Shown here piece by piece: positions 3,460 to 23,396 of a stretch of DNA of 64,000 nt. This stretch comes from Candidatus Pacearchaeota archaeon (GTDB taxonomy: Archaea; Nanobdellota; Nanobdellia; Pacearchaeales; GW2011-AR1). Within the stretch, counting starts at the first letter, position 1, and every line of letters begins with the position of its first letter. Below the pieces are notes generated by a model. It saw only the letters and a list, made by a program, of their open reading frames with translations. It was not told where the DNA came from and did not search any database. Made by a program: the position numbers and the translations under genes. The stretch spans positions 127,269 through 191,268 of the forward strand of contig JBNLBP010000001.1 of NCBI GenBank assembly GCA_050302495.1, written 5' to 3'.

Positions 3460-3831
3460 ATGATAAAATCAAAAACAAAGATATCGAAGCAATTAGAAAG
3501 AAAAACTAATCCAGAATTAGTCGAAACAATACTATTAGCTAAGAAGAGTGCTTCTTGGTTAGAAATTGCATCAATCTTGTCAGGATCTAGAAGAAAGAGA
3601 ATTAATATTAATCTAAGTGATTTAAGTAAAAGTATTGAAAGTGAGAAAATAGTTCTTATTCCCGGAAAAGTATTGTCTGAAGGAGAAATGGATAAAAAAG
3701 CAAAGATTGTTGCCTTAAACTTCTCTGAAAAAGCAAAAGAAAAGTTGATAAAAGCTGGATGCGAAGTTTCAAGTATACTAGAGGAAATTAAATCAAACCC
3801 TGAAGCTAAGGGTATTAAGGTGTTAAAATGA
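3460..3831 (+). CDS. rpl18e: 50S ribosomal protein L18e
   Basis: 123-aa basic protein. It begins the conserved archaeal L18e-L13-S9 cluster. Its end overlaps the L13 start by 4 nt. Confidence 0.75.
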   Translation: MIKSKTKISKQLERKTNPELVETILLAKKSASWLEIASILSGSRRKRININLSDLSKSIESEKIVLIPGKVLSEGEMDKKAKIVALNFSEKAKEKLIKAGCEVSSILEEIKSNPEAKGIKVLK

Positions 3832-4217
3832 AGGTAGTTGATGCAACAAATTATCCAATGGGAAGACTTGCAAGCTTTGTAGCAAAAGAAGCTTTGAAGG
3901 GGGAAGAAGTAAAGGTAATCAATTGTAACAAAGTCTTGATAACTGGAAGTAGAGAATATGTTGAAAAAGAGTTCCAAGTTAGAAGGGGAAGATATGGAAG
4001 TTCTCAAAAAGGACCAAGAATTTCAAAATCAAACGAACAAATAGTTAAAAGAACAATAAGAGGTATGCTTCCAAACTTTAGAGAAGGAAAAGGAAGAGAA
4101 GCTTACAAAAGAATAATGTGTTATAATGAAGGTTTAGGTGAAGAAGTTAAAGAGATTGTAACTCTTGGAAAAAGAAAACCAAAGAAATCAATTAAATTAG
4201 AATCAATGAGAAAATGA
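3828..4217 (+). CDS. rpl13: 50S ribosomal protein L13
   Basis: Translation MKVVDATNYPMGRLAS...VINCNKVLITG is typical uL13. Position is conserved, between L18e and S9. Confidence 0.85.
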   Translation: MKVVDATNYPMGRLASFVAKEALKGEEVKVINCNKVLITGSREYVEKEFQVRRGRYGSSQKGPRISKSNEQIVKRTIRGMLPNFREGKGREAYKRIMCYNEGLGEEVKEIVTLGKRKPKKSIKLESMRK

Positions 4218-4612
4218 AAGTAATCACATCAGGAAAAAGAAAGACAGCTATTGCAAGAGCTATACTTGAAGAAGGAACAGGAAAAGTTACAATAAATGGT
4301 CAAGATTACAAGAAATTACAAGAATTTGATAAGTTGAAATTGGAAGAGCCATTAAGAATAACTGAGAACATATTAGGAAAATTGAATTTCAATGTTGCAA
4401 TAAAAGTTAGAGGCGGTGGAGAAAAATCACAAGTTGAAGCATCAAGACTGGCTTTAGCAAGAGCAATTGTTGAATTTACAAAATCAGAAAAAGTAGAAGA
4501 TGCTTTCTGGGATTATGATAGAAATCTTCTTGTTGCTGATGTAAGAAGAAAAGAAGCTTACAAGCCTGGTGATTCCAAAGCTAGAAGTAAGAGACAGACA
4601 TCATATAGATAG
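4214..4612 (+). CDS. rps9: 30S ribosomal protein S9
   Basis: C-terminal ...KPGDSKARSKRQTSYR is the uS9 signature. 4-nt overlap with rpl13. Confidence 0.85.
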   Translation: MKVITSGKRKTAIARAILEEGTGKVTINGQDYKKLQEFDKLKLEEPLRITENILGKLNFNVAIKVRGGGEKSQVEASRLALARAIVEFTKSEKVEDAFWDYDRNLLVADVRRKEAYKPGDSKARSKRQTSYR

Positions 4613-5855: not shown

Positions 5856-6410
5856 TTATTCAGAAATTTTTCTTCTTTTAGTTAAGGTATCTAGTTTATC
5901 TTGTACTTTATTAAATAATATTGAAGATACAATTGGTTTATGATCTGCTTCATGAATTTGACCATCAAATTTTATCTTTCCTATATAAGCAAAATTTCTA
6001 AGTATTTTCTTTAAACCATTTACGGAAAGTTGGTGTTTTTTTGATAGTGTGTTTAAGTTCATTCTTGGTTGTAAGAACTCTTCGAATATTTCTTCTACCT
6101 CTTCATAGTTTTGAGCTGGAACTAAAACTCCTGAATCATGATTTCTTTTATACCCAAATGGTGCTCTAGACATGTGTAATCCTTTAGAAGATTTCTTTAT
6201 CATCCCAATTTTTTGATTTTCCCCACGGAACTTAGAATATTTTCTTAAAGGTTCAAGATTCTTTTCAAGGATTTTTTCTTCAATATATACATCTAATTCT
6301 TCGGGAGTATTGGGGGAGAAAGTATGGCAAATACTACATAATGTTAGTCCAAACTTACTCTTGTTCTTATCCGAAACATACCCGCATTTTACGCATTTAC
6401 TTTCATTCAT
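5856..6410 (-). CDS. zinc-ribbon protein carrying a serine-recombinase-type recombinase (DNA-binding) domain, without a resolvase catalytic domain
   Basis: N-terminal CxxC...CxxC (CVKCG...CSICH). The remainder matches the recombinase-domain pattern of large serine recombinases (APFGYK...VLVPAQNYEEVEEIFEEF...LKKILRNFAYIGKIKFDGQIHEADHKPIVS..LFNKVQ). Its start overlaps the 3' end of the tyrosine recombinase gene by 8 nt. Confidence 0.55.
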   Translation of the reverse strand: MNESKCVKCGYVSDKNKSKFGLTLCSICHTFSPNTPEELDVYIEEKILEKNLEPLRKYSKFRGENQKIGMIKKSSKGLHMSRAPFGYKRNHDSGVLVPAQNYEEVEEIFEEFLQPRMNLNTLSKKHQLSVNGLKKILRNFAYIGKIKFDGQIHEADHKPIVSSILFNKVQDKLDTLTKRRKISE

Positions 6411-7242
6411 TTTGCATCAATCCATCTATAGGGGATTTTATTTTTTTTAATTGTTCCGTTGAAACGTGAGCGTAAATTTCTGTGGTCGCAAGGTTACTAT
6501 GGCCAAGAAGAGTTTGTATAAATCTTATGTCTGTTCCATTTTCTAATAAATGTGTTGCAAAAGAGTGTCTTAAGGTATGGCAGTGAACATCTTTGTTTAT
6601 TCCTGCTTTTTTTGCTGTATTTGAAACTATTTTTTGCATATTTCTAGGAGTAAGTTTTCCCTTTGGACCTGAGAAAATGTAAACTTGGTTGAATTCTTTT
6701 TGATTTTTAGCACGATTTTTTAGATCTTCATATAAGAATTCGGGAATATTAAACATACGATCTTTCTTTCCTTTAGCTTGTTTTACATAACCTATCTTAT
6801 TATCAAAATCTAGATCATCTATTTTAAGACTAACCAGTTCTGAAACCCGAAACCCACAAGCATACATAAGAGACATCATTAACCTTGATTTCTTATTTGA
6901 AGCGACATCAAACATCCTTTTGACTTCTTCTTTTGTTAAAACTGCAGGGATTCTTTTTTCTCGTTTTGGTCTTTTAATACCTTGAGTTATATCTTTTTTT
7001 AGAATATTTGAATAAGCATATTTAATTGCGGATAAGAAAACAATCGTTGAACTTGAACTTGAATCAGATAATCTCTCAACTAAGAAAAGTTTTAGATCGT
7101 CTTCACTCATATCATCTGGTATTTTATTTGTAAATATGAATAATTCATTGTTTGCTCTTAGATAGTTTCTTAAAGTATAATTGGAATTTTTAGAGATCTT
7201 CAGTTCTATTTCAAGTTTTTTTAGAAATTCTTCTGGAGTCAT
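6403..7242 (-). CDS. xerA: tyrosine recombinase, XerA/XerCD-like integrase family
   Basis: C-terminal catalytic signature HTLRHSFATHLLENGTDIRFIQTLLGHSNLATTEIYAHV. R (RVSEL) and K (GKKDR) are also present. Confidence 0.85.
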   Translation of the reverse strand: MTPEEFLKKLEIELKISKNSNYTLRNYLRANNELFIFTNKIPDDMSEDDLKLFLVERLSDSSSSSTIVFLSAIKYAYSNILKKDITQGIKRPKREKRIPAVLTKEEVKRMFDVASNKKSRLMMSLMYACGFRVSELVSLKIDDLDFDNKIGYVKQAKGKKDRMFNIPEFLYEDLKNRAKNQKEFNQVYIFSGPKGKLTPRNMQKIVSNTAKKAGINKDVHCHTLRHSFATHLLENGTDIRFIQTLLGHSNLATTEIYAHVSTEQLKKIKSPIDGLMQNE

Positions 7243-7243
7243 A

Positions 7244-7909
7244 TTATTTCTTAGGGGCTTTTAGGAAAAGATTTTTCCAAACAGGCTGTTTAAACAGCTG
7301 TTTATTATCTTTGAAAACTATTGTATTTATTCCTAATTTAGAAGCGGGTTTTGTATTCCAAACTTGATTATCAATAAATAATATATTTTTTGGTTTTACC
7401 CCTATTTTTTTTATTAAAAGTTTGAAGATCTCAGGATTTGGTTTTCTCATTCCAGCGTCGCAAGATACAATTATATCATCAAAATTCTTGTAAAGTTTTG
7501 GAGGCATTAGTGCTTTCTTAGATAAAACCCATTGATCTGATAAAACACTTACATTATATCCTAATTTTTTTAGTTTAGATGCCTGATTAAACAGCCATTC
7601 ATTTTGTTTGAAATGTTTTTTGTAAGAATTTATGTATAAACTTCTTACTTTCTTTTCTGAAATTTTGAAGTTTTTTGAAAGTGTAGAAACAACTCTTTCT
7701 GGAGAGATTTTACCTTCTATTGCAAGTGCATAAGTCGTATCTATAGCATCAAGATATTGATCCAATGAAATCTTAAGTTTTTTTGCAATATCTGTGTGTA
7801 CTCCAGATGGAATTAATTTTCCAGATTCTAATTTAGAACTTTCGCCTAGAGCAAGAACTCCGCTTACATCAAAAACAATGGATTTTATGTTGAGATCACC
7901 TTTTTTCAT
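7244..7909 (-). CDS. HAD-superfamily hydrolase
   Basis: N-terminal IVFDVSGVL (motif I-like). C-terminal ILFIDNQ (motif III/IV-like). 1-nt spacing to xerA. Confidence 0.5.
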   Translation of the reverse strand: MKKGDLNIKSIVFDVSGVLALGESSKLESGKLIPSGVHTDIAKKLKISLDQYLDAIDTTYALAIEGKISPERVVSTLSKNFKISEKKVRSLYINSYKKHFKQNEWLFNQASKLKKLGYNVSVLSDQWVLSKKALMPPKLYKNFDDIIVSCDAGMRKPNPEIFKLLIKKIGVKPKNILFIDNQVWNTKPASKLGINTIVFKDNKQLFKQPVWKNLFLKAPKK

Positions 7910-10633: not shown

Positions 10634-11227
10634 ATGGATAAAAAAGAGGGAATTCTTGAATTATTTTTAGGATTGATATTTGTTGCATTATTAGTTATTA
10701 TTTCTATTTTGGTTATTGGTATGGCTGATGGGAAACAAACAGCTGTTCAAACATCAAACAGCATCCAAAATTCTTACAATGTTAATTCCTACAACCAGGT
10801 TGTCCAAAAAATTCCTGTAGAGACAAGTGCGGCTAGGAATGTTCCGGTTACCAAAAGGTTTGTTGAAAGGCCTGATTATGGCACTCATATAGTAAGTTAT
10901 GTTCGAAAAGGTTATACGAACTCTGACAACTATCAGAAAAGCCAATACCTTAGATACACTAGTTACGGAGAGCATACACAAGAAAAAACCTTTTTTAATA
11001 ACTACAGGGACGAATTTAATGTTTATGTAGTTAATAAGGATTATGCCGGAGGGTATTTTAAGGTAAAATTCGCTTTTTGTGATTATTATGATAATTGTTT
11101 CTCTGAAACCATAGAAAAATATATTCCAGCAAAAGAGGAAGCGAAGTTCACATTCATGGATGTGCAGAACGAGCGATATAAGTACCACAATTGGGAATAT
11201 AAGGTGTTTCCAGATGTTTTGGACTAG
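10634..11227 (+). CDS. membrane-anchored hypothetical protein
   Basis: N-terminal TM helix (ILELFLGLIFVALLVIISILVIG), then a Y/N-rich ectodomain. Contains an AAACAGCTGTT palindrome. Confidence 0.45.
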   Translation: MDKKEGILELFLGLIFVALLVIISILVIGMADGKQTAVQTSNSIQNSYNVNSYNQVVQKIPVETSAARNVPVTKRFVERPDYGTHIVSYVRKGYTNSDNYQKSQYLRYTSYGEHTQEKTFFNNYRDEFNVYVVNKDYAGGYFKVKFAFCDYYDNCFSETIEKYIPAKEEAKFTFMDVQNERYKYHNWEYKVFPDVLD

Positions 11228-12346: not shown

Positions 12347-12539
12347 AGTGATTGTTAATTCTATCTCTATTTAAAGATTTAGGCTCTAGAATTTCTGAAT
12401 AATTAATAGAACTGCCAGGATGTTGCACTTAGGTTAAGTTAGTATTCTTACTAAAAAATATTGTGAAAATTTTGATTTTAAAAGAATAGTTTTTAATTAT
12501 TTAGTAAATTATTTTATAAAATGACCAAAGAAAATTAGA

Positions 12540-12790
12540 TAAACACCTGTTTAAACAGCGTTTTATCGACGGTGTAAGAACTTGGGTATTTAAGGGTGTT
12601 TGACAGGTTGTTGGAGGTGTTTGAACAGGTGTTGGATAATATTTTGTGTTTTGGGTGATTCTTAAACAGCTGTTTATAGGTGTTTGTAGCTGTTTAGAGA
12701 TGTTTAAACAGGGTGTTTGTTTGTTTTTTTCAAAATAAACGGGTGTTTAAGGGTGTTTATTATGTAAAATTTTATGTTAAAAATAGTGTA
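12540..12790. repeat. intergenic array of GGTGTTT / CAGGTGTT iterations interleaved with CTGTTTAAACAG and AAACAGCTGTTT palindromes
   Basis: At least six exact GGTGTTT copies. Palindromes at 12547-12558, 12662-12677 and 12701-12711. Confidence 0.7.
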
Positions 12791-12865: not shown

Positions 12866-13507
12866 ATGTTTGGATTATTTTCGAGAAAAAAAGAGATTGA
12901 TGAAGTTAAGGAAGATACAAAAAAAGGATTTGAATCTGTAAAAAAAGATATTACGGCTGTAAGCGGATGGATTAAACACCTAGATTCTGAGCGAGAAATG
13001 CAAAAAAAAGACATTTCTGAGGTTAAAGAAATTTTATCGTCGGTTCAAGAAGAGCTTGAAAGTCTCAAGAACGTGTTTTCTATGATGAATCAAACAGGTG
13101 TTTTGCCAAAAAACAAACAGGTGTTTAAAACACCTGGTAGGGTGTTTGAAGAACAAACAGGTGTTTATGCTGTTCAAACAGGTGTGCAAACGGCTGTCCA
13201 AACACCAAATTTAGAGCAATTTTCAATAACAGAGAGAGCAATTATATGGGTTATGCTAAATAGTGATATGAAGCTTAGTTATGATGATATAGCTGCTATG
13301 TTGGGAAAGGAGAGATCTACTATAAGAGGGCAGATAAATACAATAAAATCAAAGAGTGAGGGCTTAATTGAAGAGGTAATAGAGAAAAATGGTAAAAAAA
13401 GAGTGTTTATACCTGAGAAAATGAAGGAAATAATGCTCAAAAAGGCGAAAGTGAGAGTTAATAAACAAAAAAACGCGAAAAAAACTAAAAAAGTGAGTGA
13501 ATATTGA
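12866..13507 (+). CDS. coiled-coil / QTGV-repeat / C-terminal winged-HTH protein (paralog of 13702..14589)
   Basis: N-terminal K/E coiled coil. Middle region is made of AACAGGTGTTT nucleotide repeats (QTGV peptide repeats). C-terminal HTH-like LSYDDIAAMLGKERSTIRGQINTIK. Confidence 0.5.
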   Translation: MFGLFSRKKEIDEVKEDTKKGFESVKKDITAVSGWIKHLDSEREMQKKDISEVKEILSSVQEELESLKNVFSMMNQTGVLPKNKQVFKTPGRVFEEQTGVYAVQTGVQTAVQTPNLEQFSITERAIIWVMLNSDMKLSYDDIAAMLGKERSTIRGQINTIKSKSEGLIEEVIEKNGKKRVFIPEKMKEIMLKKAKVRVNKQKNAKKTKKVSEY

Positions 13508-13701: not shown

Positions 13702-14589
13702 TTAAATATCTCTTAATTGAATTATTGTTTGTAGACTAGCAACTTTCTTTAAATCAGAAGAGACACTTAACTGGATAGACTTGTTATTTATCTTAGTTTT
13801 ATCGACGGGGATACCTTTCTTTATTAGTCTTCCAATATAATCCCTGATGGAGCTCTCTGTAAGCCCTAAAATGCTTGAAATAGCCTTATAATCAGCATAT
13901 CCTTCTTCTTCACATAATTGATATAATGTAGTGAATACTGTCATCTCTTGATCAGTGAGTCTTTTGAACTTTAGACGTATTTCTTTCTTCAAGTTATCAA
14001 GAGAGTTGAGAATTGTCATGGCATCCTTTATTGGGCTTGAAGGAGTCATTTTAGGTATGTTTTCTTGATTGTACGAACTATTATGTGTCTGTTGGTGTGT
14101 TTGTCTGTTTGTCTGTTTGTCTGTTGGAACCCCCCCATTTCCTGTGGAAATACCTAAATTTTGGGGTTCTAAGGGCTTAATATGTGTCGAATCTGTCGAA
14201 TTATGTGTCGAAATAGAGTCATTTATGTGTTGGATTGTCGAATTATGTGTCGAAGCCCTTTTAACAGGGATTTCAGGAGTGTTGGAATATGTGTTTGTCT
14301 GTTTGTCTGTTTGTCTGTTTGTCTGTTGGATAAGTATTTCAGGGTTATTTGGAGAAGAAAGAATACTTGAAAGGGAGTTTTTTTTGGATTGAAGTGTATT
14401 CTCTTTCAGTGATTTAACAATTTCTTTAATCTCATTTAAATCAGAAGAAGTATTATTTAAAGAATCTTTCAATGAGCATATCTCACCATACAAAAAGTCA
14501 ATATCTTCTTTAACTCTCAAAAAGGCCTCTTTTATTTCTTCCATTATTTCAAAAGAGGTATTAGATATAAAAAGATTAAGATAATCCAA
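13702..14589 (-). CDS. coiled-coil / tandem-repeat / C-terminal winged-HTH protein (paralog of 12866..13507)
   Basis: Same architecture as the 12866..13507 gene. C-terminal HTH-like YADYKAISSILGLTESSIRDYIGRLIKKG. Middle region encoded by (TTGTCTGT)n arrays and GAATTATGTGTCGAA repeats. Confidence 0.5.
   Translation of the reverse strand: MDYLNLFISNTSFEIMEEIKEAFLRVKEDIDFLYGEICSLKDSLNNTSSDLNEIKEIVKSLKENTLQSKKNSLSSILSSPNNPEILIQQTNRQTDKQTNTYSNTPEIPVKRASTHNSTIQHINDSISTHNSTDSTHIKPLEPQNLGISTGNGGVPTDKQTNRQTHQQTHNSSYNQENIPKMTPSSPIKDAMTILNSLDNLKKEIRLKFKRLTDQEMTVFTTLYQLCEEEGYADYKAISSILGLTESSIRDYIGRLIKKGIPVDKTKINNKSIQLSVSSDLKKVASLQTIIQLRDI
14085..14340. repeat. intragenic tandem arrays: (TTGTCTGT)4-5 at 14090-14135 and 14293-14335, and GAATTATGTGTCGAA x3 at 14181-14255
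   Basis: Read directly. On the coding (minus) strand these give KQTNRQT and STHNS peptide repeats. Confidence 0.75.
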
Positions 14590-15728: not shown

Positions 15729-15813
15729 GAGAAGGTGAGACCTAACAAATTTATAAAGTTTTCTGTGAGAATATATAGAGATTAGAGGAGATACTTAATA
15801 ATACTCTATATAA

Positions 15814-15985
15814 ATAATAATAATAATAATAATAAATTATTATATATAACACCCCCACCCCATTACTTCTTATGGAAATATTTAAAAAGAAATTGATTGA
15901 CTTTTTCTTTTTTATTTTATTTAAAAAAATTTATATTATATATTATATATATAATATAAATAATAATAATAATAATAATAATAAT
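15814..15985. repeat. (AAT)n microsatellites (about 7 and 8 units) within the origin AT-rich region
   Basis: aataataataataataat runs at 15814-15836 and 15957-15985. Confidence 0.8.
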
Positions 15986-16146
15986 TGTTCTATTTGGTGA
16001 TTATTTAGAAATTGTTCTCCATAGGAAATAAAGGTGTTTTTATTTCTTAGTGATTATAATCCTTTATATAATAAACTCCGTTTTCTCCGTTGGTTATGTT
16101 CCTTTGGAGGTATTTTCCACAGGAAATAAACGTGTGGGTGTGATAA
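15845..16146. promoter_or_regulatory. predicted chromosomal replication origin (oriC): AT-rich unwinding element flanked by ORB-like dyads, immediately upstream of orc1/cdc6
   Basis: ORB-like elements TCTCCATAGGAAATAAAGGTG (16015-16036) and TTTCCACAGGAAATAAACGTGTGGGTG (16124-16150). A third copy lies on the opposite strand at 15849-15880 (TTTCCATAAGAAG..GGGGTGGGGGTG) with a G-string. A >90% A+T stretch containing an (AAT)8 run sits between the inverted elements (15881-16010). An inverted core TTCCTTTGGA is at 16100. Confidence 0.6.
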
Positions 16147-16148
16147 AG

Positions 16149-17360
16149 ATGGCATTAGATATTGATGGTTTGTTTAACTCTTTTCATAAAGAGGGTATAT
16201 TCAAAGATAAAAGCTTACTACAAATAAACCATAAACCTGAAGAGATTCCTCATAGGGATGAACAGATAAAGCAAATTGTTTCTATTCTGGCTCCTGTACT
16301 TAGGGGTGAGAAACCTAGTAATCTTTTTGTTTATGGTAAAACTGGTACTGGTAAGACTCTTTCTGTTCAATTTGTTCAAGATGAATTAATAAGGAGATTC
16401 TCTAGAGAATCTGATTTTAAGCTTAGAATTGAATATTTAAATTGTAAACTTAAGAAGATTGCTGATACAGAATATAGAATCCTTGCGGAATTAATTAAGA
16501 AACTAGGTGGTGAGGTTCCTGAGACTGGCTTGCCTACTCAGTCTGTTTATGGTAAATTTGTAGATTTAGTAGATACTGAGAAACAATTGATTGTTTTAGT
16601 TTTAGATGAGATCGATCAAACTGTTAAGAAAATTTCTAGTGACTTTCTTTATAACCTTACTAGATTAAACTCCGAATTATCTAAAACTCAAATTTGTGTG
16701 GTGGGTATTAGTAACAATCTTACTTTTTTGGATGAATTAGACCCAAGAGTTAGAAGTTCACTGAGTGAAGAGGAGATAGTTTTTCCCCCATATAATGCTG
16801 TTCAGTTGCAAGAAATTTTGAATAAGCGTTCAAATGTTGCATTTAGGGAAGGTATTGTTGAAGAAGGTGTTATTGCTAAGTGTGCTGCTTTTGCTGCTAG
16901 AGAGCATGGTGATGCTAGAAGAGCATTAGATCTCTTAAGAGTTGCAGGGGAATTGGCTGAAAGAGCGGGTTCTGAAAAAGTTTTACTCGAACATATAGAT
17001 CAGGCCAATGATAAAATAGAAAAGGACAAGATTTTGGATATTGTTGAATCTGAACCTAGGCAATTTCAACTTGTATTATACTCCATTATAAATCTAATTG
17101 AGAAAGATAAAGATCATTCTATATTTACAGGAGATGTTTACAACTATTATCAGGATTTATGTTCTAAGAATCGATCAGAAGTTCTTACTCAAAGAAGAGT
17201 CTCAGATATAATACAAGAATTTGACATGTTAGGTATCATTAATGTAAGAGTTATTTCTAAGGGTAGAGGTGGGAGAATGAGGGAAATAAAGTTAGCTATT
17301 TCAAATAATATATTAAATAAGGTTAAAGAGATCATTGAACACTCTCTTAATTATAGATAA
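16149..17360 (+). CDS. orc1: Orc1/Cdc6 replication initiator
   Basis: AAA+ Walker A GKTGTGKT. Walker B VLVLDEID. C-terminal winged helix. N-terminal MALDIDGLFNSF...INHKPEEIPHRDEQ is typical of Cdc6. The ATG at 16149 is preferred over the track's alternative start at 16050, which would run through the ORB elements. Confidence 0.9.
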   Translation: MALDIDGLFNSFHKEGIFKDKSLLQINHKPEEIPHRDEQIKQIVSILAPVLRGEKPSNLFVYGKTGTGKTLSVQFVQDELIRRFSRESDFKLRIEYLNCKLKKIADTEYRILAELIKKLGGEVPETGLPTQSVYGKFVDLVDTEKQLIVLVLDEIDQTVKKISSDFLYNLTRLNSELSKTQICVVGISNNLTFLDELDPRVRSSLSEEEIVFPPYNAVQLQEILNKRSNVAFREGIVEEGVIAKCAAFAAREHGDARRALDLLRVAGELAERAGSEKVLLEHIDQANDKIEKDKILDIVESEPRQFQLVLYSIINLIEKDKDHSIFTGDVYNYYQDLCSKNRSEVLTQRRVSDIIQEFDMLGIINVRVISKGRGGRMREIKLAISNNILNKVKEIIEHSLNYR

Positions 17361-18940
17361 TGGGTGATGAAATTGTTAAATTTTGTTTTGAAAGGGGCTT
17401 ATTATTAGATAATGAAATACTTGATTTGTTTAGACAGGAGAATGATTTTGAATCGGTCAAATTAGTTATAGAGAAAATAAAGAGTAAAACTCAAGAGAAA
17501 ATAATTACTAGAGATGTTCTATCTGTTAATCAGGAGAAAATAAGACAGGTTTTTTTGGAACTTCCTTATGAAAAACAGAAAATACTTGAGAATTTGAAAA
17601 TAAAGTTGGGTTTGAGCATAGAAATATCTAGAGAGATTAAACAAGAGGTAAGCACTTCTTTTAATTTAGAAGAACCAAGTGTTAAAATTTTTGATTCTCC
17701 TAAGCTTGTTGAGAAGAAGTTAGAAGTTCAGGATTTTACTAAGTATTTTAGGTCTAGATTTGATCAAATGAAGGGGGTTCTTATGACCCATTCCGCTTTG
17801 AATAATCTTGTTTCAATAAATAAGATTTCAGGTAATAGGTCTAATTTTTCCTTGATTGGCATTGTTAGGGATAAAAGTGTTACTAAAAATAAAAATCTTA
17901 TGTTAGAGGTTGAAGATTTTACTGGAAAAATAAAGGTTCTTATTAATCAAAATAAGAAGGAAGTTTATGAAGAAGCACAAGATATTGCTCTTGATTCGGT
18001 GTTAGGGTTTAGTGGTTCAGGGAATAGTGAGATATTTTTTGCTAATGAGGTTATTTTTCCAGATTCTATGCTTCCAGAGAGAAAAAAGGCTTTTGTGGAG
18101 GAATTTGCTCTTTTTATTGGGGATTTACATTTTGGAAGTAAGAGGTTTTTGAGAAAAGGTTTTGAGAATTTTATAAATTATATTAATGGCGATGCTGGTA
18201 ATAGAGATGAAGTAATGAAGATAAAATATCTTTTTTTAGTGGGAGATGTTGTTACGGGTGTTGGAAATTATCCTAATCAAGAGCCTGATTTAGAAATAAA
18301 TGATCTTGAGGAACAGTTTACTCAATTGGCAGGCTTGTTGGGGAGGATAAGAAAAGATATTAAGATTATTATTTCTCCTGGAAATCATGATGGTGTTAGA
18401 ATTATGGAACCTCAACCCTTACTCAATGAAAAATATGCTTGGCCTCTCTTTGATATGGATAATGTGATTATGACTACAAACCCTTGCAATGTTAATATTG
18501 CTTCAAGGGAAGGATTTTCTGGTTGGGATATTTTGACTTATCATGGTTTTTCATTTCCTTATTATGCTGGAAATATACCTTCTTTAATAAAAAAGAAGGC
18601 TATGAATTCCCCTGAAGAAATTATGAAATTTTTACTCAAGAATAGACATCTTGCTCCAACCCATGGTTCTACCCAGTATTATCCTTTAGAAGAAGATTCT
18701 TTGTTTATAAAAAAGGTCCCAGATATATTGGTTTCTGGACATACTCATAAAGCAGGTATTGTTTACTATAATAATATCCTAATTATTTCAGTTGCTTGTT
18801 GGGAAGGGATGACTCCTTATCAGGAGAAGTTTGGTAATAAACCGGATCATTGTAAGGTTCCAATGGTTAATCTTAAGACAAGGTCTGTTAAAATTCTTGA
18901 TTTTGAGGATCTTGAAGAGACTGAAGAGAAAAGCGTTTAA
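17360..18940 (+). CDS. DNA polymerase D small subunit (DP1, 3'-5' exonuclease, calcineurin-like phosphoesterase)
   Basis: MPP motifs GDLHFGS, GNHD and GHTH with an N-terminal OB-like region. 1-nt overlap with the orc1 stop. Confidence 0.88.
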   Translation: MGDEIVKFCFERGLLLDNEILDLFRQENDFESVKLVIEKIKSKTQEKIITRDVLSVNQEKIRQVFLELPYEKQKILENLKIKLGLSIEISREIKQEVSTSFNLEEPSVKIFDSPKLVEKKLEVQDFTKYFRSRFDQMKGVLMTHSALNNLVSINKISGNRSNFSLIGIVRDKSVTKNKNLMLEVEDFTGKIKVLINQNKKEVYEEAQDIALDSVLGFSGSGNSEIFFANEVIFPDSMLPERKKAFVEEFALFIGDLHFGSKRFLRKGFENFINYINGDAGNRDEVMKIKYLFLVGDVVTGVGNYPNQEPDLEINDLEEQFTQLAGLLGRIRKDIKIIISPGNHDGVRIMEPQPLLNEKYAWPLFDMDNVIMTTNPCNVNIASREGFSGWDILTYHGFSFPYYAGNIPSLIKKKAMNSPEEIMKFLLKNRHLAPTHGSTQYYPLEEDSLFIKKVPDILVSGHTHKAGIVYYNNILIISVACWEGMTPYQEKFGNKPDHCKVPMVNLKTRSVKILDFEDLEETEEKSV

Positions 18941-19595: not shown

Positions 19596-19917
19596 TAAAG
19601 GTGAATTAGTTATGGAATTGATGCATGAAGAGGAAAAGAAGGAAATTTTGAAGATAGGTCTTGTTTATAATGTTCAGGTTGGAGAAAGTAGTGTAAGGTC
19701 AGGTATTTTGACTAGTAAAAATAGAAATGATCTTTATAAAATTCTTGTAAATAGTTTACCTGCAGATAGGATGAATGATCCCCGGATTTATCCTTTTAGA
19801 GAATATTCTTTTGAAAATGATTTGTTGAAAATTCGTTGTTCTTCTGGACCTGAAATTATTTCAAAATATTCTAAGAAATATAGGGAGCTTAAACCGTTTT
19901 TAGAGAAATTAGAATGA
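19585..19917 (+). CDS. hypothetical protein (110 aa)
   Basis: Track ORF overlapping both neighbours by a few nt. No motif. Confidence 0.35.
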   Translation: MINDKGELVMELMHEEEKKEILKIGLVYNVQVGESSVRSGILTSKNRNDLYKILVNSLPADRMNDPRIYPFREYSFENDLLKIRCSSGPEIISKYSKKYRELKPFLEKLE

Positions 19918-22900
19918 AAACTGAAACATATTTTGAAAATTTGAAGAAAGAAGTTGATAAGGTTTATGTAGTAGCAAATGAAGCTAGAAGAAAGGGTTTT
20001 GACCCTGTTGATGAAGTCGAGATACCTTTGGCTATGAATATGGCTGAGAAGGTTGTAGGTATTATTTCTACAGTTTACCCTCAAATGTTGAATTCGGGAA
20101 TATCTAAAAGAATTGTTGAGCTTGAGAAACAATTTGGAAAACTTGATGCTACTGTCTCATTTAAAATTGCGGAAGAAGTTGCAAAACAGAAATTTTGTAA
20201 GTTTGAAAATACTCTTGAAGCAATGGATGCGGGTATACGTGTTGGTTTTGGTTATCAGACAATAGGTGTTGTATCTTCCCCAATTGAAGGATTTACTGGG
20301 TTGAAGGTTCGACATACTAAAGATGGGAAAGAGTATATTGAAGCAAGTTTTTCTGGACCTATTCGTTCGGCTGGAACGACGGCTTCTTGTATTGTTTTGA
20401 TGATTATTGATTTTTTGAGGGAGACTTTTGGTTATGCGAAGTATGATCCTACTGATGATGAAATTAAGAGGGTTTGGACCGAATTAGAGCATTTCCATGA
20501 CCGTATAACTAATTTGCAGGGAATGCCTACAGAAGCGGAAGCATTGTTTTTAGCTGAGAGAATGCCTATACAGGTTGCAGGTGATGCTTCTGAAAGAATT
20601 GAAGTTCCAAATTATAAAAATCTTGAAAGGGTTGATACCGATTTTTTGAGGAGTGGTTTTTGTTTGATTATGGCTGAAGGGTTATCTCAGAAAGCAAAGA
20701 AGGGTTTTAGATTGTATACTAATGCTAAGAAAAATGGAGTAAACATGACTGGTTTTGATTGGCTGGATGAATATCTCGTCTTACAGGAGAAGATTAGTAA
20801 AGGTAAGACCAAATCTGTTAATTCTGTTCCGCCTTATATTAGAGATTTGGTTGCAGGTAGACCTGTATTTGGCCATCCATCGCGAAGTGGAAGTTTTAGA
20901 TTTAGATATGGTAGAGGAAGAAATTCTGGGTTCTCTGCTGCTTCAGTACATCCTGCTACTATGGCAATATCTGATAATTTTATTGCTGTAGGGACTCAAT
21001 TGAAAATAGAGAAACCAACAAAGGGTTGCGCAATAAGTTCTTGTGACTCAATTGATGGCCCTATTATAAAATTATTTAATGGAAGTGTAAAGAAACTCCA
21101 TAATCAACAGGAAGCTAAGCAATATTATCCTGATACAGAAGAAATAATTTATTTTGGAGATATTCTCTTCCCTTTTAGTGATGTTTTGAATAGAAATTAT
21201 AATTTGCTTAAACCTGGTTATGTTGAAGAATGGTGGGAATTGGAGTTGAAAGAGAAAAATCCTTTAGAAGAATATCATGGTTTTAATCTAAAAATTGATG
21301 AAGCAATTAATTTGAGTAAAAAATATGGTGTTGCATTGAATCCTAAATTTATTTTTTATTGGACTCAGATTTCTAAAGAGCATTTTAGGGGGTTGATTGA
21401 TTGGCTGAAATATTCTAAGGTTGATGGAAAAATTATTTTGCCTTACGAAAAGAATAGCAATGAAAAATTTATTTTTGGAAAGAGGGCTTTGGAACTTTTA
21501 GGTATTGAGCATGATGTCACATTAGAACATGTTGTTTTATCTGAATTGAATTCAAAGGCTTTACTGGTGAACCTTGGTTTGAATCTTGATGTTCATTTAT
21601 CTAGAACTTTGAAAGAAGAAATAGATGGTTTGGAGAAAAAGATTAACTTTGATAGCGAAAATATTTTGGAAGAAATTAATAAAGTTTCAGAATTTTTAAT
21701 AAAAGATAAAGCTGGAGATTTTGTGGGTGCACGGATGGGTCGTCCAGAAAAAGCAAAATTGAGAAAACTGACCGGTAGTCCAAATATTCTTTTTCCGGTG
21801 GGTAATGAAGGAGGGAGATTAAGGAGTTTACAAGCCGCTTGTGAAATTGGTAAAGTTTTTAGTTCGTTTCCATTAAATTATTGTGAGAAATGTGCTAAAG
21901 AGACTATTTACCCTAAGTGTGAAACTTGTGGTGAAAAAATCAGGGAGCAATTTTATTTTCCACGTCTTAAGGAGAAGAGTTTTTCAAAAGAGATAGAAGG
22001 TTCGGATAGACCTGGTATGAGGTATTCAGGTAGATCTATTGATATTAATCACTATTATTCTAATGCTTTGGAGCTTTTAAAAATGGATAAGAATGAAGCA
22101 CCCGTTTTGATAAAAGGTATAAGGGGTATGAGTTCAGAAGGTAAGGAAACAGAACATTTGGTTAAGGGTATTTTAAGGGCCAAATATGGTTTGCAAGTAA
22201 ATAAGGATGGTACCATAAGGGTTGATGGGACTGAGTTGCCCGTTACGCATTTTAAACCAAAAGAAGTTTCAGTTAGTGTTGAGAAATTGAAAGAAATTGG
22301 ATATGATTTTGATATATATGGTAAACCTCTTGAGAATGAAAATCAAATCTTGGAAATAATGCCTCATGATGTTATTTTGCCTTGTAGTCCTGATTCTCTT
22401 GATGAGAAATGTGATGATGTTTTTTCTAAAGTTTCTAATTTTGTTGATGAGCTTTTGACTAAATTTTATGGTGTTGGTAATTTTTATAATGTGAAGAAAA
22501 GAGAAGATCTTGTGGGAAAATTGGGTGTTTTTATGGCACCTCACAATTGTGCAGGAGTTGTTTGTAGGTTTATTGGTTTTTCAAAAACCCAAGGGCTTTT
22601 GGCTAGCCCTTATATGCATGCTGCAGTTAGAAGAGATTGTGATGGAGATGAGGCTGCAGTTATGTTGTTGGGTGATGTTTTATTGAATTTCTCAAGAAAA
22701 TTCTTGCCAAGTCATAGGGGAGGTACTCAAGATGCTCCTTTGGTTTTGAATGCTAGGATTGATGCTGGAGAGGTTGATGATCAAATCTTGGATTTTGAAG
22801 CAACACCTGAAGGTCATTACCCTTTATCTTTGTATAAACTTGCAGAACAAGGAAATCATTCAAGTGAAGCTAAAGATGTTGTAATTGTTAAAACTGTTTT

Positions 22901-23396
22901 GAAAGAAGGAAGAGATCCTTTCCGTAATTTGGGTTTTACCCATGATACTTCTGATTTCAATGAAGCAGTTTTATGTTCTTCATATAAATTATTAGCAACT
23001 ATGCAGGATAAAGTTCAACACCAGATGGAATTGGTTGAGAAGCTAAGGAGTGTTGATACTTCTGATACTGCAAGATTGATTATTGAAAGACATTTCATTA
23101 GAGATTTAAGAGGTAATTTAAGAAAATTCTCTCAACAAGAGTTTAGATGCGTTGCTTGTAATGAAATAATAAGAAGGCCTCCTTTGAAAGGGGTTTGTAG
23201 TTCTTGTGGTGGAAAATTGATTTTTACAATTCACGAAGGGGGTATTAAGAAATATCTCGAACCTGCACTAGATTTAGCAAAAAAATATAATTTGTCAACT
23301 TATTTACAACAGAATTTGGAATTGGTTAAGGGCTATATTGATAGTATCTTTGGGAAAGAATTGGAAAAACAAGAGAATATTAGTAAATGGTTTTAG
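19914..23396 (+). CDS. DNA polymerase D large subunit (DP2)
   Basis: 1160 aa. Conserved DP2 blocks and C-terminal Zn-binding CxxC pairs (CVACN...CSSCGG). No intein-sized insertion. Confidence 0.9.
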   Translation: MKTETYFENLKKEVDKVYVVANEARRKGFDPVDEVEIPLAMNMAEKVVGIISTVYPQMLNSGISKRIVELEKQFGKLDATVSFKIAEEVAKQKFCKFENTLEAMDAGIRVGFGYQTIGVVSSPIEGFTGLKVRHTKDGKEYIEASFSGPIRSAGTTASCIVLMIIDFLRETFGYAKYDPTDDEIKRVWTELEHFHDRITNLQGMPTEAEALFLAERMPIQVAGDASERIEVPNYKNLERVDTDFLRSGFCLIMAEGLSQKAKKGFRLYTNAKKNGVNMTGFDWLDEYLVLQEKISKGKTKSVNSVPPYIRDLVAGRPVFGHPSRSGSFRFRYGRGRNSGFSAASVHPATMAISDNFIAVGTQLKIEKPTKGCAISSCDSIDGPIIKLFNGSVKKLHNQQEAKQYYPDTEEIIYFGDILFPFSDVLNRNYNLLKPGYVEEWWELELKEKNPLEEYHGFNLKIDEAINLSKKYGVALNPKFIFYWTQISKEHFRGLIDWLKYSKVDGKIILPYEKNSNEKFIFGKRALELLGIEHDVTLEHVVLSELNSKALLVNLGLNLDVHLSRTLKEEIDGLEKKINFDSENILEEINKVSEFLIKDKAGDFVGARMGRPEKAKLRKLTGSPNILFPVGNEGGRLRSLQAACEIGKVFSSFPLNYCEKCAKETIYPKCETCGEKIREQFYFPRLKEKSFSKEIEGSDRPGMRYSGRSIDINHYYSNALELLKMDKNEAPVLIKGIRGMSSEGKETEHLVKGILRAKYGLQVNKDGTIRVDGTELPVTHFKPKEVSVSVEKLKEIGYDFDIYGKPLENENQILEIMPHDVILPCSPDSLDEKCDDVFSKVSNFVDELLTKFYGVGNFYNVKKREDLVGKLGVFMAPHNCAGVVCRFIGFSKTQGLLASPYMHAAVRRDCDGDEAAVMLLGDVLLNFSRKFLPSHRGGTQDAPLVLNARIDAGEVDDQILDFEATPEGHYPLSLYKLAEQGNHSSEAKDVVIVKTVLKEGRDPFRNLGFTHDTSDFNEAVLCSSYKLLATMQDKVQHQMELVEKLRSVDTSDTARLIIERHFIRDLRGNLRKFSQQEFRCVACNEIIRRPPLKGVCSSCGGKLIFTIHEGGIKKYLEPALDLAKKYNLSTYLQQNLELVKGYIDSIFGKELEKQENISKWF

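Follow-up and report, generated by a model that had tools for sequence, protein, structure and literature searches.

A recombinase-domain protein encoded behind recombinase genes in DPANN archaea: a candidate DNA-binding partner of site-specific recombination

The gene run and its 184-residue product

In a 64,000-nucleotide (nt) stretch of DNA from a Candidatus Pacearchaeota archaeon (contig JBNLBP010000001.1; the whole stretch is called the window below), the gene for a XerA-type tyrosine recombinase is followed on the same strand by a small gene whose product of 184 amino acids (aa) joins the remnant of an HNH nuclease module to the recombinase domain (RD) of serine recombinases. Both domains are known, but their combination and the gene cassette in which it is encoded are undescribed; a literature search found no publication on the RD family or on its pairing with recombinases. 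Relatives of the gene recur in other archaeal genomes, and a recombinase gene followed by an RD or HNH-RD gene is a recurrent two-gene cassette. The features at the locus are as follows.

5856..6410, minus strand: gene for the 184-aa RD protein (stop codon included), with an HNH module expected to be nuclease-dead and a serine-recombinase RD
6315..6410, minus strand: residues 1-32, four-Cys HNH remnant; CxxC-CxxC spacer of 15 aa, catalytic His-His segment deleted
6183..6314, minus strand: residues 33-76, helical linker whose final part, ~63-76, aligns with serine recombinases at the C-terminal end of helix E and at the linker
5886..6182, minus strand: residues 77-175, RD, delimited by PF07508, PHROG 95, Foldseek matches to 4kis/6dnw and invariant columns
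6403..7242, minus strand: XerA-type tyrosine recombinase gene, 279 aa; PF00589, E 8e-45; NF040815
6403..6410, minus strand: 8-nt overlap between the XerA stop and the RD-gene start, ATGAATGA
7244..7909, minus strand: HAD-IA family hydrolase gene (PF00702, TIGR01509), 1 nt upstream of XerA
3460..4612, plus strand: L18e-L13-S9 ribosomal protein operon, convergent with the 184-aa gene and a conserved anchor of the locus

The HAD, XerA and RD genes run head-to-tail on the minus strand with no spacing and probably form one transcription unit. The recombinase is assigned to the archaeal XerA family (NCBIfam XerA_Arch, NF040815) by a narrow pass, 222.9 bits against a cutoff of 220. Pfam recognizes its SAM-like N-terminal domain (PF13495, E 1e-6) as well as its catalytic domain, and the catalytic R, K, HxxR, H and Y are all visible on direct reading of the translation. 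The coordinates of the open reading frames (ORFs) bear out the original prediction, made from the sequence without database searches, that the XerA and 184-aa genes overlap by 8 nt. The same prediction held the two genes to be translationally coupled, and of this only the overlap stands: because genes of this compact genome routinely overlap slightly or lie a single nt apart, with HAD and XerA 1 nt apart and overlaps of 4 nt at both L18e/L13 and L13/S9, the junction reflects co-directional packing and not a special coupling. In other genomes XerA and the RD gene are separated by 1 nt (TAAAATG) or overlap by 4 nt (ATGA).

The C-terminal ~120 residues had been read as the RD of a serine recombinase, and profile and structure comparisons agree. 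Pfam places PF07508 (Recombinase) on residues 125-174 at 27.3 bits, above the gathering cutoff of 21.1, and PHROG 95, a serine integrase family, matches residues 63-181 (E 1e-16). An AlphaFold model built on an alignment of 72 family members is confident (mean predicted local distance difference test score, pLDDT, 92.3), and among solved structures Foldseek ranks first the A118/LI serine integrase, in its C-terminal domain bound to DNA (4kis, 6dnw; E 4e-6), with a root-mean-square deviation of 2.0 Å over ~125 columns at 22% identity; next in rank are newer serine-integrase complexes, Bxb1 and phiC31. An exhaustive profile search reaches serine recombinases of 250 aa and of ~500 aa at their residues ~130-260 (E 1e-11 to 1e-20). 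These matches begin at profile positions 49-62 and therefore take in the two elements before the RD, the helix-E tail and the linker. In a BLASTP alignment with a small serine recombinase (L025), residue 63 of the query corresponds to residue 141, which lies within the Resolvase span (9-156) of the latter.

The 184-aa protein carries a genuine serine-recombinase RD without the resolvase catalytic domain. The absence of that domain, also predicted, is borne out by Pfam, in which Resolvase (PF00239) gives no match at E ≤ 1; with the same tool, small serine recombinases from related loci score E 1e-38 to 1e-47. A Pfam scan had been expected to return a zinc-ribbon family together with PF07508, and only the latter came up: no zinc-ribbon family of large serine recombinases matches at E ≤ 1, the protein stops ~10 residues past the RD, and its sole cluster of cysteines is the N-terminal, HNH-derived one. 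Because the catalytic domain and the C-terminal zinc-ribbon/coiled-coil are both absent, the protein is not a serine recombinase. With the large serine recombinases (A118/LI, Bxb1 and phiC31 integrases; CcrB, XisF) it shares the fold and family of the RD, the helix-E tail before it and the N-terminal position of a catalytic-type module. It differs from them in having no Resolvase domain, no Ser nucleophile and no C-terminal zinc-ribbon/coiled-coil, in the apparently dead HNH that forms its N-terminal module, in its length (184 aa against ~450-600 aa) and in being the product of a chromosomal archaeal gene rather than a phage or mobile-element integrase. Across 72 sequences of the family, 29 columns are invariant, including most of the segment S-x-NGLKK-IL-N-F-x-Y-x-GK of the RD, which by analogy is probably the DNA-recognition helix.

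The N-terminal CxxC...CxxC pattern had been described as a ribbon. Its cysteine pairs are indeed conserved, with three of C6, C9, C25 and C28 invariant and the fourth at least 90% conserved among 72 family members, but the module is not a ribbon of the large-serine-recombinase type. Alignment with P0132 (37% identity over the full length, E 5e-39) identifies it as an HNH remnant. This intact relative and others (P0142, P0147, P0271-P0283; ~200-215 aa) carry a PF01844 HNH domain before the same RD, with E values of ~1e-10 to 1e-11 (3e-10 for P0132). A 17-residue gap in the 184-aa protein relative to P0132 removes the 'LEVHH' core and the Asn segment, while the CxxC pairs survive, as does the motif end '...LCSICH'. 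The remnant is modelled by AlphaFold as a beta-beta-alpha unit (strands at residues 17-19 and 22-24, helix at 26-31). The shortened form is typical of the close relatives, 118 of 120 of which have a CxxC spacer of 13-18 aa (the remaining two have no second CxxC); a His-His motif occurs in a single one of the 120. All 14 intact relatives, by contrast, have a spacer of 31-32 aa, and 13 of the 14 show LE[VI]HH...NL[IV]TL. One clade (139 aa) has no N-terminal domain at all; it keeps the linker and RD, and its gene still overlaps XerA by 4 nt.

Compared with HNH endonucleases (PF01844), the 184-aa protein is a homologue of the intact HNH-RD proteins that retains both pairs of CxxC and the motif end 'L(C)xxC(H)', whereas it has lost the catalytic His-His together with the Asn segment and gets no PF01844 match from Pfam at E ≤ 1. 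With its catalytic core deleted, the protein does not qualify as an active HNH nuclease, and its N-terminal module is expected to be nuclease-dead. The predicted inversion of domain order relative to large serine recombinases (zinc ribbon, then RD) does not survive this assignment: because an HNH remnant is followed by the helix-E tail and then the RD, the order is that of serine recombinases. Among solved structures, the HNH of an intact relative is closest to that of IscB (9k2z, E 1.5e-8), and P0281 has an HNH similar to the ones in IscB and in a maturase reverse transcriptase (6me0).

The RD module is shared with small archaeal serine recombinases (~255 aa, without a zinc-ribbon/coiled-coil domain), in which it follows an intact Resolvase domain where the 184-aa protein has an HNH remnant. 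These enzymes, which fill the XerA slot in some genomes (see below), split into two groups. SR-A (for example L027, L099 and L106) abuts intact HNH-RD genes, and its RD is 34-38% identical to the HNH-RD/RD family; the RD of SR-B (for example L025, L064 and L133) is 68% identical to that of an intact HNH-RD protein (P0281) and 47.5% identical to that of the 184-aa protein. The catalytic domains of SR-B and SR-A are 49% identical. These sequence relations suggest that SR-B arose when a resolvase domain was joined, by a catalytic-domain swap, to an RD of the HNH-RD family. One RD module stands behind three N-terminal domains, namely the resolvase catalytic domain (SR-B), an active HNH and a dead HNH, and the three resulting proteins probably recognize the same or very similar DNA. 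Two further proteins from the profile search, P0166 (574 aa) and P0174 (366 aa), combine one or two RDs with several helix-turn-helix (HTH) or winged-helix domains and have no catalytic domain, which suggests a wider reuse of RD modules for DNA binding alone.

Conservation of the family and its pairing with recombinase genes

A word-indexed search of clusters at 90% identity returned at least 977 matches; the 120 listed, for which lengths are given, range from 163 to 210 aa, and the few with a named source come from Nanoarchaeia or Pacearchaeota. A scan of one genome per species gave 292 matching stretches. The locus counts below rest on the 80 loci kept from it, each covering 4 kb on either side of the RD gene and nearly all labelled Woese-, Pace- or Nanoarchaeota. 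With this many clusters and stretches, and with lengths so conserved, the gene is not a truncated fragment, in agreement with the original prediction, and not a pseudogene. Orthologues have the same start position, mean column identity within the dead-HNH family is 56%, and this form is under strong purifying selection. The RD gene is convergent with the S9-L13-L18e operon in 78 of the 80 loci (clusters for S9, L13 and L18e are found in 78, 74 and 67, respectively).

A mobile-element or viral origin was considered and rejected: no member of the RD family occurs on the viral contigs searched, the genes neighbouring the RD gene are housekeeping genes or of unknown function, and PADLOC has no defence-model match for the 184-aa protein or XerA (the intact relatives match generic HNH models only). 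The family is apparently inherited vertically, at a fixed locus near the probable replication origin described below.

A search for the gene pair in other archaeal genomes was proposed together with the original prediction, and the pairing with a recombinase gene is conserved elsewhere. A recombinase gene lies upstream, within 4 kb, in 64 of the 73 informative genomes, XerA in 49 and a small serine recombinase in 15. The loci divide as follows.

28/80 loci: XerA abutting the RD gene, gap -17 to +58 nt, typically TAAAATG or ATGA
20/80 loci: XerA 0.3-3.7 kb upstream, same strand
1/80 loci: XerA on the opposite strand
15/80 loci: small serine recombinase (Resolvase plus RD, 250-290 aa) replacing XerA
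9/80 loci: neither recombinase, at least 3 kb of upstream sequence available
7/80 loci: upstream sequence too short for judgement

XerA and the serine recombinase are mutually exclusive (Fisher p 9e-10, uncorrected for phylogeny). The exchange of one for the other happened in place, because the flanking genes c14 and c11 are common to both versions; sister genomes such as L055 and L056 differ only in the recombinase that occupies the slot. The HAD gene is present in 41 of the 80 loci, and the orders HAD-XerA-RD, XerA-HAD-RD and SR-HAD-RD (SR, small serine recombinase) are all seen.

The intact-HNH relatives have the same habit. All eight that were looked up have a recombinase gene directly upstream (four XerA, four SR; gaps of +13 to -29 nt), and one pair of SR and intact HNH-RD (L089) lies in a different genomic context. 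In a metagenome scan, an abutting recombinase was found in 24 of 27 informative loci (7 XerA, 17 SR); two of the other three have a recombinase one gene away and one has none. The adjacency of recombinase genes to relatives of the RD protein suggests an undescribed recombinase partner. In six loci (L027, L114, L124, L126, L135 and L145), SR-A, an intact HNH-RD and a dead or N-terminally shortened RD stand in tandem, so the intact and dead forms are paralogues in some genomes.

Several loci have peculiarities of their own. A 207-aa relative in L113 (3489-4112), recognized by Pfam through PF07508 only, has a sigma-70 neighbour and no recombinase upstream, on a contig that is probably bacterial; it is the metagenome locus with none, and the single clear departure from the pairing. 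The XerA of L067 (1848-3947) is 699 aa long, its catalytic domain being interrupted by an intein with a LAGLIDADG homing endonuclease (PF14890, E 2e-16; PF14528, E 4e-16). Genes of homing-endonuclease type (LAGLIDADG, HNH_repeat) and a PHP-domain gene adjoin the cassette of recombinase and HNH-RD in the metagenome contigs L094 (2992-4794), L095 (757-2559) and L127 (1846-2730).

The nearby origin and the local palindromes

The RD locus lies ~9-10 kb from a group of replication genes.

16050-17360: orc1/cdc6 gene
17360-18940: PolD small subunit gene
19914-23396: PolD large subunit gene

Directly upstream of orc1/cdc6, the AT-rich intergenic region 15729-16049 contains (AAT)n/(ATA)n runs and elements resembling origin recognition boxes (ORBs), ACCCC...TTCTTATGGAAAT; a better ORB-like dyad, ACCCCCCCATTTCCTGTGGAAAT, lies at 14129-14158. 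The region 15729-16049 is probably the replication origin, and at ~9 kb from it and from cdc6 the XerA-RD pair is origin-proximal. The order cdc6 ... XerA-(HNH)RD-S9 is also found in distant relatives. GC skew within the 64 kb follows the coding strand and is uninformative on whether the locus lies at the origin or the terminus.

The palindromes at 7286-7305 had been proposed as dif- or att-like sites, and this is not what they are. The sequence is a 6-bp-stem hairpin in the HAD coding region (terminator-like matches number 2, against 0.9 expected), and it holds one copy of a locally enriched motif that tracks another gene.

7292..7303, no strand: 12-bp palindrome AAACAGCTGTTT in the 3' end of the HAD gene, encoding KQLF; a stray copy

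Allowing one mismatch at most, AAACAGCTGTTT has seven copies in the window against 0.28 expected, all at 7.2-13.2 kb (7292-7303, 10737-10748, 12520-12760 and 13092-13166); variants include AAACASSTGTTT, often as ...CTGTTTAAACAGCTGTTTAAACAG... The 80 loci hold 102 copies, 98 of them on the flank opposite the ribosomal operon, and two thirds of the exact-core copies are intergenic. The motif clusters upstream of, and inside, a c14-like coiled-coil/HTH gene (~205 aa; 12866-13507 in the window; loci L006-L098). Its copies encode QTGV/QTAV repeats in the c14-like gene and KQLF(KQ) in the HAD and XerA genes, the latter with CAG and CTG codons that seem GC-rich for a genome of 32% GC. As a site for the RD protein or XerA the motif was rejected: it tracks c14, it is absent from L089, which has SR and HNH-RD without c14, and its promoter-proximal enrichment is weak. 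The array may be an operator, an iteron or a centromere-like array. A second repeat, TGTTTGTC, occurs as 8-nt tandem units in the ORF at 13702-14589 (minus strand), three copies at 14098-14125 and four at 14292-14327, and encodes the QTNRQTDKQT-type low-complexity linker of a 295-aa coiled-coil and winged-HTH protein in the style of c14.

A recombination partner and the competing readings

From the gene context we favour a role for the 184-aa protein in site-specific recombination, as a partner or regulator that binds DNA, and put its probability at roughly 0.45. A single transcript, probably HAD-XerA-RD, would encode both XerA and the protein; the RD, judging from fold and homology, would bind a conserved DNA sequence; and the bound protein would act as a partner or regulator of recombination, for instance by marking or organizing the recombination site. 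Accessory and directionality factors such as lambda Xis, the recombination directionality factors of serine integrases, ArgR/PepA at cer and FtsK for XerCD offer a parallel, in that a small protein is likewise encoded beside a recombinase gene. By that analogy the 184-aa protein may control the choice of site or the direction of recombination, although no relation to these factors in sequence or fold was seen. The directionality factors of serine integrases bind the integrase rather than DNA.

A number of observations weigh against a role in recombination. The functional link is drawn from gene neighbourhood in one archaeal lineage only, and because cdc6-oriC ... XerA-RD-ribosomal operon is a conserved syntenic block, the adjacency may partly be inherited order. 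Nine of the 73 informative loci have no recombinase within 4 kb, other genes intervene in 20 loci, and about 22 small serine recombinase genes in the metagenome sample stand alone. A mirror-tree comparison of XerA with the RD protein gave a partial r of 0.19, within the control range of 0.08-0.36. The RDs of adjacent SR-A and HNH-RD proteins are not each other's closest match (33% identity for adjacent pairs, 34% for non-adjacent ones). An apparent XerA-RD fusion, the 447-aa ORF of L009, is an artefact that spans a run of N at 3944-4000 of a public metagenome-assembled genome, and the top 150 of the profile search include no match of fusion length. Such a run is a trap for automated inference from domain fusions. 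The XerA of P. abyssi, studied by Cortez et al. in 2010, reportedly acts on dif in vitro and is not known to need an accessory protein there. An inverted-repeat scan of the 64-kb window (11-bp arms, 6-8-bp spacers) found no convincing dif candidate near the locus. The last point says little, since in Thermococcales dif is not adjacent to xerA (PMC2958812).

In a competing explanation, the protein is an independent sequence-specific DNA binder, for example a regulator of transcription or a protein of chromatin, that was domesticated from an HNH-RD nuclease, and its place beside XerA reflects the inherited order of the conserved block. We consider this somewhat unlikely. It accords well with the ribosomal operon being the most constant neighbour (78 of 80 loci), above XerA, with an unrelated HAD gene being linked about as often as XerA and sometimes directly abutting the RD gene, with the nine loci that have no recombinase within 4 kb, with the lack of a co-evolution signal between XerA and the RD protein and with short overlaps being generic in the genome. 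What it does not readily explain is the alternation of XerA, SR-A and SR-B in a single slot, never together, or the recurrence of the SR and HNH-RD pair in another context (L089). Nor does it account for the recombinases that abut intact-HNH relatives in 24 of 27 and 8 of 8 cases, or for a linkage that outlasts rearrangement from HAD-XerA-RD to XerA-HAD-RD.

Alternatively, the protein could be a binding-only regulator that occupies the sites of SR-B-type recombinases and represses or tunes them, XerA being a mere neighbour. The RD module that SR-B shares, almost unchanged, with the intact HNH-RD (68% identity) and with the dead form (47.5%) would fit, as would the order SR-B > HAD > RD in 11 loci, and regulation of transposases or recombinases by truncated binding-only paralogues is an established principle, exemplified by InsA of IS1 and OrfA of IS911. 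Like the 184-aa protein, these regulators are a DNA-binding module on its own, encoded next to a full-length enzyme; they have a different fold, and the neighbouring XerA does not share the binding module of the 184-aa protein. The 64-kb window, however, contains neither a serine recombinase nor a second RD gene, and in most genomes of the family the gene is paired with XerA, not SR-B. On balance we think this regulator role improbable.

Still less probable, in our judgement, is a free-standing homing endonuclease in decay, its gene a former parasite of the recombinase locus without host function. The intact relatives do have such a layout, an HNH nuclease followed by a sequence-specific DNA-binding domain, and the HNH of P0281 is of a kind found in IscB and the maturase reverse transcriptase (6me0); the catalytic core is gone from the 184-aa protein, and LAGLIDADG genes and one intein occur in some related loci. 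Free-standing homing endonuclease genes, however, spread sporadically and horizontally and often decay, whereas the RD gene is fixed (78 of 80 loci) with its ORFs intact, and appears to have been inherited vertically at this locus in hundreds of species-level genomes. It is under purifying selection, with 56% mean column identity and invariant Cys and putative recognition segments; no frameshifted copies were seen, and none lies on viral contigs. An RD without a catalytic domain might also suggest a pseudogene, left by the truncation of a large serine recombinase. This reading is refuted by the different, conserved N-terminal domain (the HNH remnant), by the conserved length in the 120 listed of at least 977 clusters, by a fold predicted with confidence (pLDDT 92) and by the start position common to orthologues.

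The preferred reading, a partner or regulator of recombination, can be carried further. The cassette might be a modular two-component system of DPANN archaea in which the RD protein recognizes a conserved chromosomal site (in its intact form directing an HNH cut to that site) and the recombinase, be it XerA, SR-A or SR-B, is interchangeable. We regard this as a speculative extension that is unlikely as it stands. Were it true, an archaeal Xer recombinase would have its first accessory factor in the 184-aa protein, and in some lineages the XerA slot would have passed to a small serine recombinase, possibly together with chromosome-dimer resolution.

Apart from this, the RD with its three N-terminal partners clearly illustrates how catalytic domains are swapped while the targeting domain stays the same, and the exchange of a tyrosine for a serine recombinase within one genomic slot is unusual. 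According to a review, archaea have no FtsK, so that the control of XerA-mediated chromosome-dimer resolution must differ from that in bacteria and is unexplained (PMC8371274). A conserved, predicted DNA-binding protein encoded behind XerA is a testable candidate for this missing control, at least in DPANN archaea.

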